From Candidatus Bathyarchaeia archaeon (GTDB lineage Archaea > Thermoproteota > Bathyarchaeia > Bathyarchaeales > Bathycorpusculaceae): DNA of 64,000 nucleotides. The notes beneath the pieces are model-generated. The model was not told where the DNA came from. It was given only the letters and a program-made list of their open reading frames with translations, and searched no databases. Location of the stretch: contig JAVZLK010000001.1 of NCBI GenBank assembly GCA_038883795.1, forward strand, positions 192,001 through 256,000, in the 5' to 3' direction. This document shows, in pieces, positions 50,990 through 62,329 of this stretch (position 1 is the first letter of the stretch; every line of letters begins with the position of its first letter). The translations under genes and the position numbers were made by a program.

Positions 50990-51212
50990 TTGTTTTCACG
51001 ATTGCCATTTTAATATGGTACAAGTTTTAACGTTTATTCAAAAATCAAAACTGACCATTAAAACTTAATTCCAATATTTTCAGAAAGTTCAAAGTTTTAA
51101 TCAACCCTTTAAATAATAATCTTTAGATTGCGTTAGTTTCTGTGACATACAAAGCGTCTTACTTTTCCTCTTCAATTATTGTTGTAACAAAATCTATTTG
51201 GTGATAAAGTAT

Positions 51213-51773
51213 ATGCACCTATTAAAGAATGAAAAGGGATTAAGCGTAGTAGTTACGACATTGATAATTCTTGTGGTCTCGGTTCTGCTGGCAACCATTG
51301 TAACTTTTTACGCCATAAACGTAGTAACAACAAGGGTGCAGGAAGAATCATTACACCTTAGTAAACAGCACGTTTGGTATAATACCACTGGTTCATGGGC
51401 TCAAGCAGCTATAGTAATCGTAAACACGGGCGGAAGAGACGTAGTTATCGACAAAATCTCAGTTCGAGGGCAAGAATGTCCATGGAATAATGTTTATTAT
51501 TGGAGAACAAACAACGTGACAGTTTCAAATGACTTGGAGGTAACTTCAACTAATATTACCGGTTTGACTTTTGACATTATGGTGCAGGGTGAAATGCGCA
51601 CTTTTCGGCAAGCTGATGACGATTTGACTTTGAGGTCCGGCTGGACTATAGTTATTTACATTATGAGCCCTGATAGCATATCGGCTAATGATGTTGGCCA
51701 GACTGTGGGCATAACAGTGTTCACTTCAAATGCACAGTATTACAAAGAAGCTAATATTGAAGCAGCGGAATAG
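51213..51773 (+). CDS. Type IV pilin/archaellin-like protein
   Basis: Class III signal peptide KNEKG|LSVVVTTLIILVVSVLLA and NTGGRD; several N-x-S/T sequons. Confidence 0.85.
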   Translation: MHLLKNEKGLSVVVTTLIILVVSVLLATIVTFYAINVVTTRVQEESLHLSKQHVWYNTTGSWAQAAIVIVNTGGRDVVIDKISVRGQECPWNNVYYWRTNNVTVSNDLEVTSTNITGLTFDIMVQGEMRTFRQADDDLTLRSGWTIVIYIMSPDSISANDVGQTVGITVFTSNAQYYKEANIEAAE

Positions 51774-54526: not shown

Positions 54527-55774
54527 TTAAGGCCACAAACCCAACGTTTTTATTGCTTCAGCTACTCTTCCAACTCCAAGCATTAGGGCTGCTGTTCGCA
54601 TGTCGCACTTTTCCTTTTTCATTAAATTGTAAACGTCGTTGAAAGCTCTAACCATCTTATTTTCCAGTTTTCGATTCACTTCTTCTAATGTCCAGTGTTC
54701 GCGTGTTAGGTTTTGAACCCATTCATAATAGCTTGCTGTTACGCCGCCCGAGTTAGCCAATATGTCTGGAACAAGCATTATTCCTTTCTCGTTAAGAATT
54801 TTGTCTGCTTCTGGGGTTGTTGGGCCGTTGGCGCCTTCCGCCACAATTTTTGCGCTTATCTTGTCCGCATTGGCTTTTGTTATCTGGTTTTCCAAGGCAG
54901 CTGGTATAAGTATGTCGCATTCTGTTTCAAGAAGCTCCTCGTTTGTTATGTTTTTGCATCCCTTATAGTTGATCACGGAGCCTGTTTTTGATTTATGTTC
55001 ATAAACATAATAGGGGTTCAATCCTTCTTTGCAATAAATCCCTCCTACGGAATCGCTTACTGCCACAACTTTACAACCCATGTCATAAGCTATTTTAGCA
55101 GCATTCCACCCAACATTCCCGTAACCTTGAACAGCAACGGTTGCTCCTTTAAACTTTAAACCTGCAACCTTTGCGGCTTCCCTTGCACAAACAACCACGC
55201 CTAAGGATGTGGCTTCGGCTCTTCCTTCTGAACCGCCTACGCTTATTGGTTTTCCAGTGACGCATTCTGGGACGCTGTAGCCTTTGAATTGGCTGTAGGT
55301 GTCCATTATCCAAGCCATGGTTTGAGCATCTGTATATACGTCTGGTGCTGGCACGTCGCGGTATGGTCCGATAACGTCTAATATTAGGCTTGTGTAGCGT
55401 CTTGTGAGGCGTTCAATCTCGCTTATACTCATTTTTTTAGGGTTGCAGCATACTCCGCCTTTTGCACCTCCATAGGGTATGTCCACAACAGCACATTTCC
55501 AAGTCATCCACATCGCCAAAGCAGTAACTTCATCTAATGTGACGTTTGGGTGGTAGCGTATTCCGCCCTTGAATGGTCCCCTTGCATCGTTATGTTGAAC
55601 GCGGCAACCAGTGAAAGTACCAATTTCTCCGTTATCCATCTTTATTGTAACGGAAACGATGAGCGACCGTTTGGGATGTTTTAACATTTCATGGATCCCA
55701 GGGTCAAGATTTAATTTTTCAGCAGCTATCCTCAACTGTTCTAATGCCGTGTCTAAGGCTGACTGTTCCTTCAT
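54527..55774 (-). CDS. gdhA: Glutamate dehydrogenase (GDH1, standard length)
   Basis: KGGIRYH, MTWKCA, GGAKGG, DVPAPD, GYGNVG and EGANGPT. Confidence 0.96.
   Translation of the reverse strand: MKEQSALDTALEQLRIAAEKLNLDPGIHEMLKHPKRSLIVSVTIKMDNGEIGTFTGCRVQHNDARGPFKGGIRYHPNVTLDEVTALAMWMTWKCAVVDIPYGGAKGGVCCNPKKMSISEIERLTRRYTSLILDVIGPYRDVPAPDVYTDAQTMAWIMDTYSQFKGYSVPECVTGKPISVGGSEGRAEATSLGVVVCAREAAKVAGLKFKGATVAVQGYGNVGWNAAKIAYDMGCKVVAVSDSVGGIYCKEGLNPYYVYEHKSKTGSVINYKGCKNITNEELLETECDILIPAALENQITKANADKISAKIVAEGANGPTTPEADKILNEKGIMLVPDILANSGGVTASYYEWVQNLTREHWTLEEVNRKLENKMVRAFNDVYNLMKKEKCDMRTAALMLGVGRVAEAIKTLGLWP
54803..54886 (-). repeat. 84-bp tract shared with gdh2 (inverted repeat, copy 1)
   Basis: The reverse complement matches 59895-59978 at 82 of 84 nt. 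Confidence 0.92.
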
Positions 55775-55878: not shown

Positions 55879-57486
55879 TTAGTCTAGGATTTTTTCGATT
55901 GCGTCTTTTTCTGCTTCGTGAGGCATTGGTATACCAGTAACTTTTGCGGCTGTTTCGCTTAAGCTCATCAAATCATTTCTGTTGATGAGCTCCAGTTTCC
56001 ATTTTCTGTTGCCTGCAAGAAGTTGTTTTAGTCCGACGCCTATGCGGTCTGTTAGGTATGTGTATAAGGCTACGGCTTCCCATGGTATCTCTTTGAAGCG
56101 TTCTCCATATTTTGCTTGCAATTCTGGAGCTGCGATGAAGAATTTTTCTGGGGTGTTGCCGTATCTGTCTGCGAAGGCTTTTGGCAGTTTGCCCTCTTGG
56201 GCTAGTTGTTTGAAGTAGCTTGCTTTCATAACAGCTGTTAATGGTGAGCGTCCCATCAAAACTGCTTTTACAAAGGGGCCGTCTCCAAAGTTGCTCATGG
56301 CTATTGCTTTGAAAATTTGGGTTTCGTTTATGAAGCCCCCAGCCATTATCAAATCCGGCACATATCGCCCCTTTTTCTTCAATATTTGGGCGCATCTAAG
56401 AACTATGGCTTCTAGGTAAACTGTTGGGATGCTCATTTCATCCATCATTGGAACTGGACTCATACCAGTTCCGCCCCCTGCTCCGTCAAAGTATACTGCG
56501 TCGATTTTTGCTTCCGAAGCTATTTTTAATGTGTATGCAACTGCTGAGGGTCTGTATGCGCCAGTTTTTAATGTGACGTGTTTTGCTCCTTGTTTGCGGA
56601 GCCATTCTATGTCTTCTATCATGTTCCTTTCTTTTGGTATGCCAACTCTGCTGTGCCTTTCGAAGGATTTGAAGACGCCTTCTTTGAAGGCTTGCTGGAC
56701 TGTGGGGTCTTCTGGGTCTGGAATTACTATGTAGCCTCTTTTCTTCAGCATTATGGCTTTCTCTAAGTCTCTAACGCGGACTTCGCCTCCAATGGCTTTT
56801 GCGCCTTGTCCCCATTTTCTTTCTATTATGTTTACTTCCAATTTTGATATGGCATACACATCAACGCCTAGTCTTTGGTCTTCAACATTTGTTTGTACGG
56901 CTATGTCACCGTATTTTCCGTCCCAGAACTTTCGGAACAAGTCTACTCTGCGTTTTAACTCTTTTGAGTATGTTACTTTGCCCTTTGTGATTTGGGCTTC
57001 TGGATCCATGCCGCAAACGTTTTCTCCTACAACTATTATGGCTCCTGAAAGGGCTGAGCCTATTGCTAAGTCTTCCCAGTTTAGTCTTGCAACGTCTGTT
57101 GAGCCAAATGCGCCATTGATTACTGGAACTTTGAGGGGTATTCCAGCAACTTTTGTTTCTATGCTAACATTTGGAAATAGAGCGACATCCGGGTTTTCCT
57201 CGATTCCTAAAGCTTCGAATAAGCCTGCTTGAATGTTAAAGTGGGACCAATCTAATCCAAAATCTTTGAGGGCTCCTGCAGTGCTGTATCCGAATTGGAC
57301 TGGTTCGGGGTATAGGGCTTCTCTTCCTCTGAAGGCTGATAAGCTTATTTCGCACATTATTGGGCAGTCGCGGATGCATATGGGGCACATTCCACTGGTT
57401 GGGCTTGTGTCTTTAACGCGGGTCATTGTCCCTGTTGTTGATTTTCCGTTTAAGTATGAACTATTTCTTTGAACACGTTCCGTCAT
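55879..57486 (-). CDS. FMN-binding glutamate synthase family protein (stand-alone GltB FMN domain)
   Basis: KWGQGAKAIGGE, LKTGAY, DGAGGGTGMSP, AGG and MGR; N-terminal cysteine cluster CPICIRDCPIMC. Confidence 0.93.
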   Translation of the reverse strand: MTERVQRNSSYLNGKSTTGTMTRVKDTSPTSGMCPICIRDCPIMCEISLSAFRGREALYPEPVQFGYSTAGALKDFGLDWSHFNIQAGLFEALGIEENPDVALFPNVSIETKVAGIPLKVPVINGAFGSTDVARLNWEDLAIGSALSGAIIVVGENVCGMDPEAQITKGKVTYSKELKRRVDLFRKFWDGKYGDIAVQTNVEDQRLGVDVYAISKLEVNIIERKWGQGAKAIGGEVRVRDLEKAIMLKKRGYIVIPDPEDPTVQQAFKEGVFKSFERHSRVGIPKERNMIEDIEWLRKQGAKHVTLKTGAYRPSAVAYTLKIASEAKIDAVYFDGAGGGTGMSPVPMMDEMSIPTVYLEAIVLRCAQILKKKGRYVPDLIMAGGFINETQIFKAIAMSNFGDGPFVKAVLMGRSPLTAVMKASYFKQLAQEGKLPKAFADRYGNTPEKFFIAAPELQAKYGERFKEIPWEAVALYTYLTDRIGVGLKQLLAGNRKWKLELINRNDLMSLSETAAKVTGIPMPHEAEKDAIEKILD

Positions 57487-57538: not shown

Positions 57539-57590
57539 TGCGCATTTAAACGTTACTTTAAAAGAATGCTGAATTGAACATTTGTGTACA
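57539..57590 (-). promoter_or_regulatory. Promoter of the glutamate synthase-domain gene with three TGTACA-like boxes
   Basis: TGTACA 57585-90, TGAACA 57575-80 (10-bp period) and TGCGCA 57539-44, which abuts TATA TTTAAA 57545-50. Confidence 0.7.
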
Positions 57591-57608: not shown

Positions 57609-58352
57609 TTAAGGGATTTCTATCTGCAACCCATCAACTATATATTCACGCCTTTGGTAAGTTTGTGGGCTGTACCTTCCGCCAGCCTTCTTAATTTTTA
57701 AGAAGTTCTTATCATCCTGTCTGGAAAGGTCTATAACCACTTGTGTCATGTGTTCGATTATGGCGCAAAACTCCTTTGGGTGAGCGTTTTTCGCCATTGT
57801 CCAATAGGCGAGGGTCTGGTAGGCGTACAAAGCGGGGCAAACATGCCCAAAGAAGGCTTTAACAGCGTCTCTCCCCCAATTATGCTCCATAATGGAGAGG
57901 CTGTTAAAAACAAATCTTGTTCCCGGAGTTACAAATTCTCTTTCAATTCTTCCGAAGAAGTGGTGGAAACGTTCGGGATCTTTCGAGCTTGGAACCTTTC
58001 TAATCCATGGTGGAGCCTTATCATAAAAGTCGCTGAATATAAGTTCTCCTTGTCCAGCGGCCTCTGAGAAGCAATCTAGAACCAACAGTTTCTTTTCCCA
58101 TCCTTCGGGCAGCACTTTGGTTAATGGTGCAAGCTGGAGCATTAATGCTTGAGGAGGATATATAAAATCTAAATAAATGACTTGCTTTCCTTCCAGCAAG
58201 CCTTGTCGCATAAACGAGTAGAGGAATTCTCTTGCAAAGGTTCCGGATTCAACTTCCCACAGCACATTTTCTCCAAGTAACAACCCACCGCCTAAAAGTT
58301 GGTCTAGGCTTTTTGTTCCCGTCGAGTGAAACGCTGGCTTTTCATTTTGCAA
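57609..58352 (-). CDS. KaiC/RAD55-like RecA-fold protein with inactivated Walker motifs
   Basis: STGTKSLDQLLGGG N-terminus; Walker A position reads EVESGTFAREF and Walker B position reads FVFNSL. Confidence 0.85.
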   Translation of the reverse strand: MQNEKPAFHSTGTKSLDQLLGGGLLLGENVLWEVESGTFAREFLYSFMRQGLLEGKQVIYLDFIYPPQALMLQLAPLTKVLPEGWEKKLLVLDCFSEAAGQGELIFSDFYDKAPPWIRKVPSSKDPERFHHFFGRIEREFVTPGTRFVFNSLSIMEHNWGRDAVKAFFGHVCPALYAYQTLAYWTMAKNAHPKEFCAIIEHMTQVVIDLSRQDDKNFLKIKKAGGRYSPQTYQRREYIVDGLQIEIP

Positions 58353-58427
58353 TAGAGCTGCACCACGTTTATGGTTCGTAGGCGGTGTTAAAAATGTTAT
58401 GTTGGGTTTTGAGACGTTTTATTGGTT

Positions 58428-58473
58428 TGTACACGAGTGTACATAATGCACACAACCTTTCTATATTTGAACA
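58428..58473. promoter_or_regulatory. Divergent promoter (pseudo-ATPase / gdh2) with four TGTACA-like boxes
   Basis: Perfect palindrome TGTACAC-GA-GTGTACA 58428-43, TGCACA 58447-52, and TGAACA 58468-73 directly after TATA-like TTTCTATATT. Confidence 0.78.
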
Positions 58474-58508
58474 TAGGTCTTTTTACTCTTCGGAAGGAAG
58501 TGATAAAA

Positions 58509-60284
58509 ATGTTGAACTCTGTGGAATTATCCGCACGAGAATTGGGAATGATGAAGCTTATGGTAGATTTTTTCGCTGAAAAACCAGAGCTAACAGCAAA
58601 AATAGAAAGTTACACCACAGCCCATTATGCCCTCTTAACAACATACTCTGAAAACTTTGGCATACCAATAGAAGACGCTCTAAAAGTCTTCGAAGAACTT
58701 CAAAGAAAACTAACGGAAGCAGAATACGTTCACGTAAAGGCACCAGAACCAATAAAGAAACTTTTGCCCCTAACCAGAGAAGAACTTAACATGCTCCGGG
58801 TCTTGGTTGATTATTTCGCTGAAAATCCGAAAATGGCTCCTGCCGGCTCATTCCTATCAAAAAAGGAAGATGCTTTGGCTGAGGCATACCTATGGTTTTA
58901 TGGAAACAGCGAAGGCAACGGCGAAGTAGCAAGAGAAACGTTAAGAAATTTGGTTGAGAAGCTTCAAACAGCAGTTTACATAAAGGTCGACACATTGGCT
59001 CCCGTGGCTGTCACGCCAAACCCTTACGAAGCCGCCCTTAAACAGCTGGATTTAGCCGCCGAGAAACTAAAACTCGACCCTGGAATTCACGAAATATTAA
59101 AGCGTCCCATGCGCACACTCATCGTTAATATTCCAGTAGTTATGGATGACGGCAGCATCCAAGTTTTCACTGGCTACCGAGTCCAATACAACGACGCCTT
59201 AGGCCCAACAAAGGGCGGAATACGTTACCATCCAGATCTTACGCTGGATGAAGTGACAGCCCTAGCTGCTTGGATGACATGGAAAACCGCTGTAACTGGA
59301 CTACCCCTCGGCGGAGGTAAGGGCGGCATCCGATGCAATCCCAAAGAGATGTCAAAGGCTGAACTTGAACGTCTGACAAGAGGATACGTACGGGCTATAG
59401 CAAAATTCATAGGGCCGTTCACTGATGTGCCAGCGCCTGACGTTTACACGACAGCGGAAATGATGGCTTGGATAATGGATGAATACAGCGAAATAGTTGG
59501 CTACCCAGTTTTCGGGGTTGTAACAGGCAAACCCATCAACGTTGGCGGCTCGCGTGGAAGAGGCGAAGCAACCTCAAGGGGTTTAATGTACACAGTTATT
59601 GAAGCAGCTAAACATTTGGGCATAAACCTAAAAGGTGCAACCGTGGCAGTGCAAGGCTATGGAAATGTTGGCTATCACGTAGCACGATTATTACATGAAA
59701 TTGGTTGCAAAATCATTGCAGTTTCAGATTCTAAAGGCGGTGCCTACAATCCAGAGGGTTTAAACCCGGAAAAAGTATTAGCCCACAAAGACAGGACAGG
59801 TTCTGTAGTTGACTACCCAGGTAGCACCTTCATAACAAATGAGCAATTGTTAGAGTTAGAATGTGACATTCTGGTTCCAGCAGCTTTGGAGAATCAGATA
59901 ACAAAGGCCAATGCGGACAAGATAAGCGCAAAAATTGTGGCGGAAGGTGCCAACGGCCCAACAACCCCAGAAGCAGACGAAATCCTATTCAAAAAAGGAG
60001 TCTTCGTTATTCCAGACATTCTCGCTAATTCTGGAGGCGTTATTGTCAGCTACTTTGAGCAAGTACAGAACCAGATGAACTATTATTGGACAGAAGAGGA
60101 AGTGCGAAACAAACTGAAAGAAACAATAACGAAGGCTTTCCACGACGTTCTAAACATGGCAAAACAGCATAACGTGAACATGCGCACTGCAGCCTACATG
60201 CTCGCTGTTAAAAGAGTGGCAGATGCTTTATTGGCACGTAAAGGAACCGCCTTCTCTTTAGAATCTCCATTAGCGCCTCGTTAA
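58509..60284 (+). CDS. gdhA: Glutamate dehydrogenase (GDH2) with ~170-aa N-terminal tandem-repeat extension
   Basis: Complete GDH core (KGGIRYH, MTWKTA, GGGKGG, DVPAPD, GYGNVG, SDSKG) preceded by two ~81-aa repeats. ATG 58509 follows the RBS GGAAGTGA. Confidence 0.93.
   Translation: MLNSVELSARELGMMKLMVDFFAEKPELTAKIESYTTAHYALLTTYSENFGIPIEDALKVFEELQRKLTEAEYVHVKAPEPIKKLLPLTREELNMLRVLVDYFAENPKMAPAGSFLSKKEDALAEAYLWFYGNSEGNGEVARETLRNLVEKLQTAVYIKVDTLAPVAVTPNPYEAALKQLDLAAEKLKLDPGIHEILKRPMRTLIVNIPVVMDDGSIQVFTGYRVQYNDALGPTKGGIRYHPDLTLDEVTALAAWMTWKTAVTGLPLGGGKGGIRCNPKEMSKAELERLTRGYVRAIAKFIGPFTDVPAPDVYTTAEMMAWIMDEYSEIVGYPVFGVVTGKPINVGGSRGRGEATSRGLMYTVIEAAKHLGINLKGATVAVQGYGNVGYHVARLLHEIGCKIIAVSDSKGGAYNPEGLNPEKVLAHKDRTGSVVDYPGSTFITNEQLLELECDILVPAALENQITKANADKISAKIVAEGANGPTTPEADEILFKKGVFVIPDILANSGGVIVSYFEQVQNQMNYYWTEEEVRNKLKETITKAFHDVLNMAKQHNVNMRTAAYMLAVKRVADALLARKGTAFSLESPLAPR
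59895..59978 (+). repeat. 84-bp tract shared with gdh1 (inverted repeat, copy 2)
   Basis: CAGATAACAAAGGCC...GAAGCAGAC; 82 of 84 nt identical to the reverse complement of 54803-54886. Confidence 0.92.
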
Positions 60285-60307: not shown

Positions 60308-60341
60308 TGTACATTTTTTGATTTTTATGAACATATTTAAA
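60308..60341 (+). promoter_or_regulatory. Promoter of the RHH regulator with two TGTACA-like boxes
   Basis: TGTACA 60308-13 and TGAACA 60328-33 (20-bp period). The second box sits at the BRE position just before TATA ATTTAAA 60335-41. Confidence 0.7.
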
Positions 60342-60376: not shown

Positions 60377-62329
60377 ATGTCAGTTCATCTTCATACAACC
60401 ATAACAAGAAAAACAAATGAAATCCTTGAAGAGTTAGCAAAAACCTACGGTACAAAAAGTCGTGTTCTCGAAAAAGCTGTAGAAACCTTGCTAAGAGTAG
60501 ATAAGGTTGGTTCTTGTGATGACTGCGTTATAAAAGCGAAGGTTCACGAGCAAACCAAGTTAAGAGAAGCCCTTGACCTCACATCGATTGGAAGGAGAAG
60601 CCTTGATGGACTTTTGGAAGTTGCCATCGGCAATAAAACAGTTGAAGATTTGGTTAGGGAACAAAAAGAAGAGGCAAAAAACGTTATTGAAATTCTTAAA
60701 AGCTCAGTTGCATGGAAAACTCCTTCAAACTTTAAAGAATTCCTCTTAGTTTTAGAGGAGATTAAGGGGCTCACAAACCTTTTTGATATTCCCTCCTACA
60801 GCGAAATTGACAACATGGCAGTTTTAAGACCTAAAGTCTTTAAACGCTTACCAGTTTTAGTTGCTTTTCAAATCGCCACAATCCTTGAAGGTATTGGAGT
60901 TTGCTTCGACCTTCGCGTAATGGGTGAAGATATTGCCATTAAAATGATTCGCCCCGAAGTCTATCCTCTAAAAAGGAAAGAATTTGGCGATTTTCTAAAT
61001 CAACAGATTGAAAAAGAATTAATGAACGTAACTCCGGGTTTGTTCAAAAACACTTTGATGCTTGTGGGACCAGCCTTTATGAGTTGGGCAGAAAAGCATC
61101 TGGAAGAACCTATCACGGATTTGGGGAACTTTATAGAAGATGCGAGAACCGTTCTTGGCGTTAGCGAGTTTCCAAGAGAACCAAAAGATTTCGTGAAAGC
61201 CATTCTTTCAGCCTTTGTCAAAATGAACTGGTTCAAGCAAGCAAAAATTTTGGCTGAAAAGAAAGAAAACACCTTGGAACTGGTCTTTCAAGTTACCGCA
61301 GCTCCACTAGCCAAATTGTCCGTAACCGTTCTTTCTGTTATGTTAGCAACTCGCGGATGGAAACTTCTGAACTATTCCATTGAACACACAACCGTAAACA
61401 TGGCAATCCAATTTGTAGGCGCAGAGGACCAAAGCCTCCTCGACCAACTAGCTGAATTAAGCCTCTTCCAAATAATAGGAAAACAATTTTTAGATGTAGT
61501 TCCAGTTCCTCGAGACCTCTTCAACTCCTTTGCATCAAGAGTCTATGAAAGCGATAGGCAAAAATTTGAGGAAATATACCGCGCAACCGGAGTCCGCATT
61601 TCAAATGCTATCCGTATGCTTGCAAGGAATGATGCGGAGAAAATTAACAGACTCTCTAAAAACTTTATTCTCAAGAATATTGGTGTGACCCAGCCAGATG
61701 CGGAGGTAAGGTTTGTTGATGATGAGCACTTCACTATCATATTCAAGCGTATTGACCCCCTCGTAATGAATAGTCAGCGGGTCTTGATAGAATCCATGTT
61801 TAGGGAGTTAGGCTACGAAATTACAACCACAACTTTTCAAAACCTTCTTAGTTTTAAGTTGAAACTTTTGGAAAAACCCATTTTGGAACCACTGCCGCGG
61901 AAAAAGTTGATGCAAACCCTTATTGAAGGCATGTCCTGCAACTCTGTGGAAGAAGCTTTCGCCATTGAAAAAGAACAATTGGACGAATTATTCCCCGAAG
62001 ATTATCCATGGACAATAAGGGATGTTGGCGAAAGGCTCATGAGCATGTATAGGGAACTGGGCATAGAGGTTGAAATAGAATATTTTGAAGGTGGCTTCAC
62101 CCTCAAATATAAGAGTTGCCCATATTACAAGCTAGTTAAGACCAACCAGAAGACATGGCTCTGCAGTCTCCGCAAAAAAACACTAGAATACGTCATTTCT
62201 AGGGTCAGCCACGGCAAGAAAGGAAAAATCAAAATCATAAAATCGCTTCTTCAGAATGAACACCCATGCGAATACGCCATATTTCTAACGGGCTTTCTTG
62301 AAAAGGAGGAAGAAAAAGCCAGCGAGTAA
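60377..62329 (+). CDS. Putative transcription regulator: N-terminal ribbon-helix-helix plus tandem V4R/MetOD1-like ligand-binding domains
   Basis: VHLHTTI (beta)-RKTNEILEELAKTYG-TKSRVLEKAVETLL; CDDC; C-terminal CPYY...C...CEY. Confidence 0.7.
   Translation: MSVHLHTTITRKTNEILEELAKTYGTKSRVLEKAVETLLRVDKVGSCDDCVIKAKVHEQTKLREALDLTSIGRRSLDGLLEVAIGNKTVEDLVREQKEEAKNVIEILKSSVAWKTPSNFKEFLLVLEEIKGLTNLFDIPSYSEIDNMAVLRPKVFKRLPVLVAFQIATILEGIGVCFDLRVMGEDIAIKMIRPEVYPLKRKEFGDFLNQQIEKELMNVTPGLFKNTLMLVGPAFMSWAEKHLEEPITDLGNFIEDARTVLGVSEFPREPKDFVKAILSAFVKMNWFKQAKILAEKKENTLELVFQVTAAPLAKLSVTVLSVMLATRGWKLLNYSIEHTTVNMAIQFVGAEDQSLLDQLAELSLFQIIGKQFLDVVPVPRDLFNSFASRVYESDRQKFEEIYRATGVRISNAIRMLARNDAEKINRLSKNFILKNIGVTQPDAEVRFVDDEHFTIIFKRIDPLVMNSQRVLIESMFRELGYEITTTTFQNLLSFKLKLLEKPILEPLPRKKLMQTLIEGMSCNSVEEAFAIEKEQLDELFPEDYPWTIRDVGERLMSMYRELGIEVEIEYFEGGFTLKYKSCPYYKLVKTNQKTWLCSLRKKTLEYVISRVSHGKKGKIKIIKSLLQNEHPCEYAIFLTGFLEKEEEKASE

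Follow-up and report, generated by a model that had tools for sequence, protein, structure and literature searches.

A predicted ribbon-helix-helix regulator with four V4R-like units and its putative operator boxes at a glutamate locus of Bathyarchaeia

To our knowledge, little is known about gene control in Bathyarchaeia and Asgard archaea, and the locus described here raises the question of which DNA a large hypothetical protein of these lineages may read and which genes it may control. The window is a stretch of 64,000 nucleotides from a Candidatus Bathyarchaeia archaeon (GenBank assembly GCA_038883795.1, contig JAVZLK010000001.1, positions 192,001 to 256,000 of the forward strand), and coordinates are counted from its first letter. 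It contains reg, a gene whose product is predicted to combine an N-terminal ribbon-helix-helix (RHH) head, a CxxC motif and four V4R-like units. In this analysis reg emerges as a genuine gene for a predicted regulator that seems not to have been described and that lends itself to direct testing; its head would recognise a 6-bp palindrome in three promoters of the locus. The initial annotation, made from the letters of the window, had not recognised the architecture as a described one; a literature search, which left most subscription papers outside its reach, likewise gave no description of the protein or of its cassette.

60377..62329, + strand: reg, predicted one-component transcription regulator, 650 amino acids, RHH + CxxC + four V4R-like units.

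The 650-residue open reading frame (ORF) proposed at this position is present on the + strand, opens with ATG and has 488 homologues at E≤0.001 among 8000 candidates scored. Codon differences are mainly synonymous against four of five close relatives (e.g. 168 synonymous and 25 non-synonymous), the fifth pair probably being out of register. Because of these homologues and codon changes reg is, as judged from sequence, a real gene. The best 120 homologues are 73-100% identical and are annotated as hypothetical protein, with no other name; no NCBIfam family matches the protein, and a search of the PDB sequences with the family profile returned two chance matches only (DNA ligase, E 0.17 and 0.51). 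The gene is conserved in Bathyarchaeia and in Hermod-type Asgard archaea and has a patchy distribution, with any match in 8/251 genomes of the class and 18/151 of the order. These 18 comprise 12 full-length genes, two partial ones (G274, which ends at a contig end, and G304), three remnants and one weak 34-residue match. A second copy was not found in the organism's own genome (87% complete).

The spacers upstream of reg and of its neighbours carry a palindromic, TGTACA-type box with the consensus TG(T/A)(A/T)CA, counted here as TG(TA/AA/TT)CA against numbers expected from shuffled sequences. It occurs at the promoters of reg, of gdhX, which lies upstream of reg on the same strand, and of a gltB-like gene beyond the divergent kai:

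60308..60333, no strand: predicted autoregulatory operator of reg, boxes at 60308 and 60328, directly upstream of a TATA-like element at 60336.
58428..58473, no strand: gdhX boxes at 58428, 58438, 58447 (variant) and 58468, flanking a TATA-like element at about 58458-58465 in the divergent kai/gdhX spacer.
57575..57590, no strand: gltB-like box pair at 57575 and 57585, about 31 and 41 bp upstream of a TATA-like element at 57543-57550 (- strand).
58509..60284, + strand: gdhX, glutamate dehydrogenase (GDH) with catalytic Lys/Asp intact and a duplicated N-terminal extension of about 165 residues.
57609..58352, - strand: kai, KaiC/RecA-like ATPase domain, divergent from gdhX, without Walker A Lys and Walker B Asp.
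55879..57486, - strand: gltB-like, stand-alone glutamate-synthase-like protein with a flavin mononucleotide (FMN) domain (PF01645), predicted target.

Relative to the TATA-like elements the boxes lie at -30, -20, -11 and +10 (gdhX), at -29 and -8 (reg) and at -41 and -31 (gltB-like), with spacings of about 10, 20 and 31 bp. At least two boxes are present in 63/63 kai/gdhX spacers (238 boxes versus 25 expected), in 71/71 regions upstream of reg (170 versus 13.5) and in 39/40 gltB spacers (82 versus 6.6). Across the 2.18 Mb of the organism's own genome the only two 10-bp pairs and the only 20-bp pair are these three sites, where about 0.9 would be expected per spacing. These promoter boxes lend strong support to the earlier suggestion that reg encodes a putative DNA-binding regulator. 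A wider regulon in the same genome was sought with a relaxed pattern and rejected, the three additional box pairs all lying inside ORFs.

Loss of the regulator is in most cases accompanied by loss of the boxes. This emerges from a comparison of gltB promoters at the best 30 gltB-like loci of 105 matching genomes, one of them without upstream DNA and related genomes not being independent: the box pair is present in 8/9 genomes with reg versus 3/20 without an intact reg. Within one genus that shares the same core gltB promoter, G269 has both reg and the pair, and G124 has a reg remnant and no box.

The association extends to relatives of reg with fewer units, in which boxes were counted within 220 nucleotides upstream of the gene's own RHH codons. 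They are present at 15/15 two-unit proteins (54 versus 4.2 expected), at the single three-unit protein (1/1) and at 11/11 Hermod-type four-unit proteins; at least two precede 9/17 one-unit proteins, all 17 together having 29 versus 4.3 expected. Three one-unit relatives whose RHH strand reads H-A-T or H-S-K, not H-T-T, have no box. The promoter of a corrinoid-protein gene, which stands ahead of an MtmB-like gene beside the two-unit proteins, contains three boxes spaced by 10 and 31 bp in 13/13 fetched cases (42 boxes versus 4.9 expected). The H-x-H-T-T strand and the box are kept together in relatives with other neighbours, and because the box follows this strand across architectures and different neighbourhoods it can be tied to the RHH head. 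The simplest reading is that the head would read the box, whatever the target genes.

The protein itself was modelled twice, with AlphaFold2 over its full length (129 sequences; mean predicted local distance difference test, pLDDT, 78.5; predicted template modelling score, pTM, 0.45) and with AlphaFold over residues 1-222 (pLDDT 84.7). In the full model two N-terminal helices behind an extended strand are followed by four units of about 130 residues, in which helices and strands succeed one another in the same sequence, and the models contain both the RHH and the V4R-like folds that had been predicted:

60380..60508, + strand: RHH head, residues 2-44, strand residues H4, H6, T7 and T8 invariant in 51/51 orthologues.
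60515..60526, + strand: CxxC, C47 and C50, behind the RHH, present in the two- and three-unit relatives shown, absent from one-unit relatives.
60560..60964, + strand: unit 1, residues ~62-196, V4R/TRAPP-like, middling (Bet3 Z 6.2, BcsD 5.9, Asgard TRAPPC3 5.3, H-NOX 5.1).
61040..61426, + strand: unit 2, residues ~222-350, V4R/H-NOX-like, middling (H-NOX Z 6.8, VirS sensor Z 6.8).
61478..61876, + strand: unit 3, residues ~368-500, V4R/TRAPP (Trs31 Z 9.3, PoxR 8.3, MopR 8.2, DmpR 8.2).
61880..62302, + strand: unit 4, residues ~502-642, MetOD1/V4R-like (BcsD Z 7.5, H-NOX 6.7), with C581, C596, H629 and C631 as candidate metal site.

RHH patterning had been noticed at the N-terminus, and residues 1-45 of the 1-222 model superpose on RHH domains (PutA 2rbf, Z 6.3 and root-mean-square deviation 1.5 Å over 43 aligned residues; NikR 1q5v, Z 6.2 and 1.3 Å; Arc, Z 5.5). 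This superposition places the head structurally among RHH proteins, whose mark is a short strand of residues facing inward and outward in turn, with two helices behind it; in about half of 50 structure-match rows, residues 1-47 are aligned to RHH-type repressors and antitoxins. The Pfam RHH cut-off is missed (RHH_3, 10.2 bits versus 21.6, E=0.78; 3/51 members at E≤0.1). The CDDC motif noted behind the head begins at residue 47; this CxxC could hold one metal ion between two heads or work as a redox switch.

All four units match V4R/H-NOX/TRAPP structures, as had been claimed, units 1 and 2 with middling Z of ~6-7. By these matches they belong to the V4R/H-NOX/TRAPP-Bet3 fold, which is a helical layer on a four-stranded antiparallel sheet according to the accessible text of PMC2253512. 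The same text gives G-x3-G pairs in helices 2 and 5 as a mark of the V4R/TRAPP-Bet3 fold; in the alignments, read by eye, G405 of unit 3 is invariant and the residue at +4 from it is small, and no full pair is seen in the other units. The motifs described at the unit starts (LDLTSIGRRSL at 66, TLMLVGPAFM at 226, LDVVPVPRDLF at 372, ILEPLPRKKL at 502) and at the ends of the first three units (ILEGIGV at 169, MLATRGW at 322, MFRELGY at 474) are all in place. The broader claim of four alike units holds for structure, where the order of helices and strands repeats, but not for sequence, in which hhalign detects no repeats (6/6 unit pairs not significant with both profile sets; best U2-U3, E=0.006, probability 6.5%).

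Unit 4 stands apart. The CPY and cysteine triad ascribed to it are found, with CPY at 581 and with C581, C596 and C631, like C47, C50 and H629, kept in 51/51 full-length orthologues; the three-cysteine cluster of V4R and MetOD1 occurs in unit 4 and not in units 1-3. Together with the RHH it is the most conserved region, with 31/138 invariant columns compared with 12-14 of ~130 in each of units 1-3. Pfam MetOD1 (PF18546) scores 17.4 bits on residues 554-635, under the cut-off of 23.8, and reaches E≤0.1 in 36/51 members (best 1.8e-4); precomputed PF18546 is attached to 3 of the 120 listed homologues, and V4R (PF02830) is absent among the 16 Pfam families listed for members. MetOD1 is likened to HNOB and V4R and has three conserved cysteines in the accessible part of Galperin et al. 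(PMC5847659).

The protein belongs to a family of predicted regulators that appears not to have been described. Its four-unit form is the longest, and one-, two- and three-unit proteins occur as complete genes. Three-unit relatives end after unit 3 (493-519 residues; one is named Helarchaeota) and two-unit relatives after unit 2 (~355-362 residues from the RHH; 15 genomes in a sample of 301 Asgard-phylum genomes), and both lack the cysteine triad. What links the one-unit relatives (~180-215 residues) to the family is the RHH head; the domain at their C-terminus aligns only weakly with unit 2 (E=0.003, probability 11%). These natural truncations support the predicted unit boundaries. Unit 4 has been seen exclusively in those forms whose genes are linked with kai and gdhX. 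In a tree of RHH and unit 1 (42 rows, quick method, midpoint root) the four-unit forms group with support 98, and the Hermod-type ones join one Bathyarchaeia row with support 99.

Further members of the family show other contexts. The two-unit RHH relatives (~380 residues; L199-L213, L233-L245) mostly adjoin an MtmB-like methyltransferase and its corrinoid protein, and in Asgard archaea this form is a candidate for the control of methylamine-type methyl transfer. In the Hodarchaeales proteins P0148, P0156 and P0168 the RHH and unit 1 are followed by a further domain and a C-terminal receiver domain, which joins the family head to two-component signalling. A 207-residue one-unit Asgard relative resembles archaeal ESM Atlas clusters of 185-192 residues in which 49-62% of members have PF27313 (score 0.94), and 10-14% of members of the two Atlas clusters nearest the four-unit protein carry PF27313 AF_0136_C; this likeness consists of cluster labels and is a lead without alignment, and PF27313 did not come up in the Pfam scans. 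Literature containing the string AF0136 gave no archaeal protein among the matches listed.

The genomic partners of reg are constant. For 75 loci fetched, including 11 Asgard loci, 11 were too short (<2100 nucleotides upstream); in 64/64 loci with at least 2100 nucleotides upstream, kai and gdhX stand beside reg. MCM, GINS and RFC, considered as fixed partners, are not constant across loci; convergent with MCM lies a 191-residue ORF (51198-51773) with what we take to be a pilin/archaellin-like N-terminus. Catalytic positions of gdhX are intact in 52/52 sequences, and hhalign detects the conserved duplication in its extension (98%, E=1e-13). The gene likely starts at ATG 58509 and not at TTG 58422, since homologues start at the former and 58422-58508 spans operator boxes. 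As tabulated for 51 orthologues, kai has no Lys at positions 38-40 and N, S or Y at position 150; lacking the Walker A G-K-[ST] and the Walker B Asp, it falls outside the active KaiC/RecA-type ATPases. No match to kai was found in plasmid records, nor in four genomes with two- or three-unit forms, a control genome being matched.

One further gene completes the locus, lying downstream of the gltB-like gene:

54527..55771, - strand: ordinary glutamate dehydrogenase, its own upstream spacer without a box.

Among the 151 genomes of the order, reg, kai and gdhX occur together and decay together. An intact or partial reg is present in 14 of these genomes; the GDH extension accompanies it in every case and kai in 13, and in the remaining genome gdhX lies at the contig start. 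Decayed cassettes at L121 (G008), L126 (G278), L014 (G124), L125 (G333) and L127 (G313) take the form of a frameshifted kai remnant, of a reg 3' end abutting a kai fragment or of reg pseudogenes. The reg module has been lost repeatedly. An exception to joint decay is G232 (L130:7287-10598), where gdhX retains its full extension without reg or kai and 17 kb contain no box pairs; two divergent Lrp/AsnC genes upstream of this extended GDH are a possible replacement of the regulator. In most Hermod-type loci (L189-L198) a gene with coenzyme A-binding and succinyl-CoA-ligase-like domains comes after reg.

On balance it is likely that the RHH head binds the TG(T/A)(A/T)CA boxes at the reg, gdhX and gltB-like promoters and that the V4R-like units would pass on a signal of glutamate or nitrogen status. 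RHH proteins bind DNA as dimers through the strand, and it is very probable that two heads would pair in this manner and read one 6-bp palindrome via H4, H6 and T8, with neighbouring dimers on one helix face. Since boxes flank the TATA-like element of gdhX and abut that of reg, it is quite probable that these two genes would be repressed. At the gltB-like promoter the position of the pair, -41/-31, would suit activation, and hence opposite control of the two enzymes, with about an even chance. It is conceivable, if somewhat doubtful, that unit 4 would bind zinc via C581, C596, C631 and perhaps H629 and provide the extra input of the glutamate locus, the dead KaiC-like protein serving as co-sensor. 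A rather speculative extension is that one DNA code (H-x-H-T-T and phased boxes) is retained throughout the family and that the input varies with the number of V4R/TRAPP-like units, gained singly from one up to four. The form with all four and the stand-alone dead KaiC-like ATPase would then repress gdhX and activate the gltB-like gene as a nitrogen/glutamate switch where NrpR is not found, parallel to a bacterial fusion of dead ATPase, XRE and cupin. NrpR (PF01995) was not found in the organism's own genome, with 2/14 control genomes matched.

Several observations weigh against binding of the RHH head to these three promoters and against the sensor role of the V4R-like units. G136 has reg and a gltB promoter without the pair, the gltB pair occurs without a detected reg in G286 (L122:3313; 84% complete) and G251 (L123:6008; 98% complete), G008 has it beside a decayed kai only, and in 8/17 one-unit relatives there is one box or none. 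These same loci served to define the box, in genomes whose kinship makes them non-independent, the TATA anchors are consensus picks, the choice between repression and activation follows from position, and the activity of the gltB-like protein, a stand-alone FMN domain, is assumed. As for the folds, scores of units 1, 2 and 4 fall within the "common" range of the comparison tool, designed proteins score equally, and the Foldseek check proposed in the initial annotation gave no match against the PDB at E≤0.001 for either model; for these reasons the unit matches are fold-level assignments. The pTM of 0.45 means that the mutual arrangement of the units is not resolved. RNA is evidence neither way, with no RNA holder listed and four reads at 90-95% likeness from one run, all on gdhX.

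Other explanations agree with part of these data. It is very improbable that the boxes are read by another protein and that reg is a passenger or scaffold without DNA binding: G251 and G286, where no cassette remnant was seen either, and the non-significant Pfam RHH score would fit such a role, yet in four architectures, and amid differing neighbours, the box goes with the H-x-H-T-T strand, and it is absent from the three one-unit relatives with an altered strand. An unlikely variant accepts that reg binds the boxes and has it switched by the redox or metal state of its cysteines, in the manner of MsvR, and not by a metabolite or partner. The invariance of all five cysteines would be explained, as would the position of the cassette among redox-enzyme-like genes, as read from ORFs, at two distant loci (L012, L013), and V4R-domain cysteines modulate DNA binding by MsvR according to the accessible part of PMC3729527. 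However, one-unit relatives without CxxC share the strand and often the boxes, two- and three-unit forms do without the triad, and PoxR and Asgard TRAPPC3 have zinc sites that are interpreted as structural tethers in the accessible text of PMC10933270; the constant partners, moreover, are glutamate enzymes.

The presence of gdhX with reg in 64/64 loci, and an extension that is a conserved duplication on an enzyme with intact catalytic positions, could mean that the extended GDH is a trigger enzyme that would dock on the regulator through its duplicated domain and signal glutamate to it, much as RocG/GudB act on GltC in Bacillus subtilis, where GDHs inhibit GltC (PMC6794564, accessible part). 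We regard this as improbable, given that the full extension persists in G232, where reg, kai and box pairs are all missing, and that shorter family members occur with no GDH alongside. A ligand pocket in each of the four units, by which the protein would integrate several small molecules as the multi-ligand sensor of the initial annotation, draws on the ligand-binding-type fold common to all of them and on the complete one- to three-unit genes, in which units other than unit 4 probably sense something. With so few invariant residues in units 1-3, the triad confined to unit 4 as the most constrained unit, and a fold that TRAPP and BcsD, among the best matches, use for dimerisation or as scaffold, this also appears improbable.

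In design, reg is closest to MsvR of methanogens, and on the models it would work like an RHH repressor with small-molecule-sensor folds. MsvR has a single V4R domain and a DNA-binding domain of the helix-turn-helix (HTH) type, whereas reg has four units, an RHH head, and a different operator, targets and lineage; with this architecture and with named holders in Bathyarchaeia and Asgard archaea it lies outside the MsvR family. The RHH repressors PutA (2rbf), NikR (1q5v), Arc, AmrZ and omega share its N-terminal strand-helix-helix (Z 4.7-6.3, 43-47 residues), and several short phased operator subsites, which RHH proteins use, are a further likeness. Behind it, these five have an enzyme or an ACT-type metal domain, or no further part, and we know of none with V4R-like units. 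The V4R domains of PoxR, MopR and DmpR, together with H-NOX, TRAPPC3/Bet3, BcsD and MetOD1, have the fold in common with the units of reg, and the cysteine triad of unit 4 has its counterpart in MetOD1 and V4R; the units differ from them by ~2-18% identity, by scores under the Pfam cut-off, by their tandem arrangement of four in one chain and by the lack of AAA+/REC. Fusion of V4R domains to regulators is known in general (PMC2253512), and Asgard V4R/TRAPPC3 proteins have been proposed as ligand binders (PMC10933270), in both cases in the accessible portions of these papers.

At the same glutamate synthase/dehydrogenase node, the GltC-RocG/GudB-gltAB system of Bacillus subtilis (PMC6794564, accessible part) is a functional analogy only, GltC being LysR-type and not homologous to reg. 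The KaiC-like protein has longer homologues fused to XRE-HTH and cupin and to PPDK_N, and is 35% identical over 232 residues to the N-terminal domain of the XRE-HTH and cupin protein P0180 (Thermodesulfobacteriota). In this bacterial form the kai domain is fused to a DNA-binding domain, with XRE-cupin in place of RHH-V4R, whereas the archaeal kai stands alone. The XRE-cupin loci (L131-L181, on metagenome contigs), many of them short, have a gltB-like homologue in 20/52 and GDH in 3/52; a few carry GDH plus a PPDK-like gene nearby. We know of no functional study of these bacterial proteins.

The folds are known and one-component regulators are a known kind, so that what is added is a new architecture and a new family and no new principle. 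From the analysis come a predicted regulator, its putative 6-bp operator, three promoters and the direction in which they would be controlled; no culture would be needed to test these, as purified protein and synthetic DNA would do. Since the box also marks target genes of the shorter relatives, as at the corrinoid/MtmB-like operon, it may be used to read regulons in Asgard genomes. The tandem V4R/TRAPP-fold units on a DNA-binding head would further illustrate how the prokaryotic TRAPP-related fold is used, and multiplied, in these lineages.

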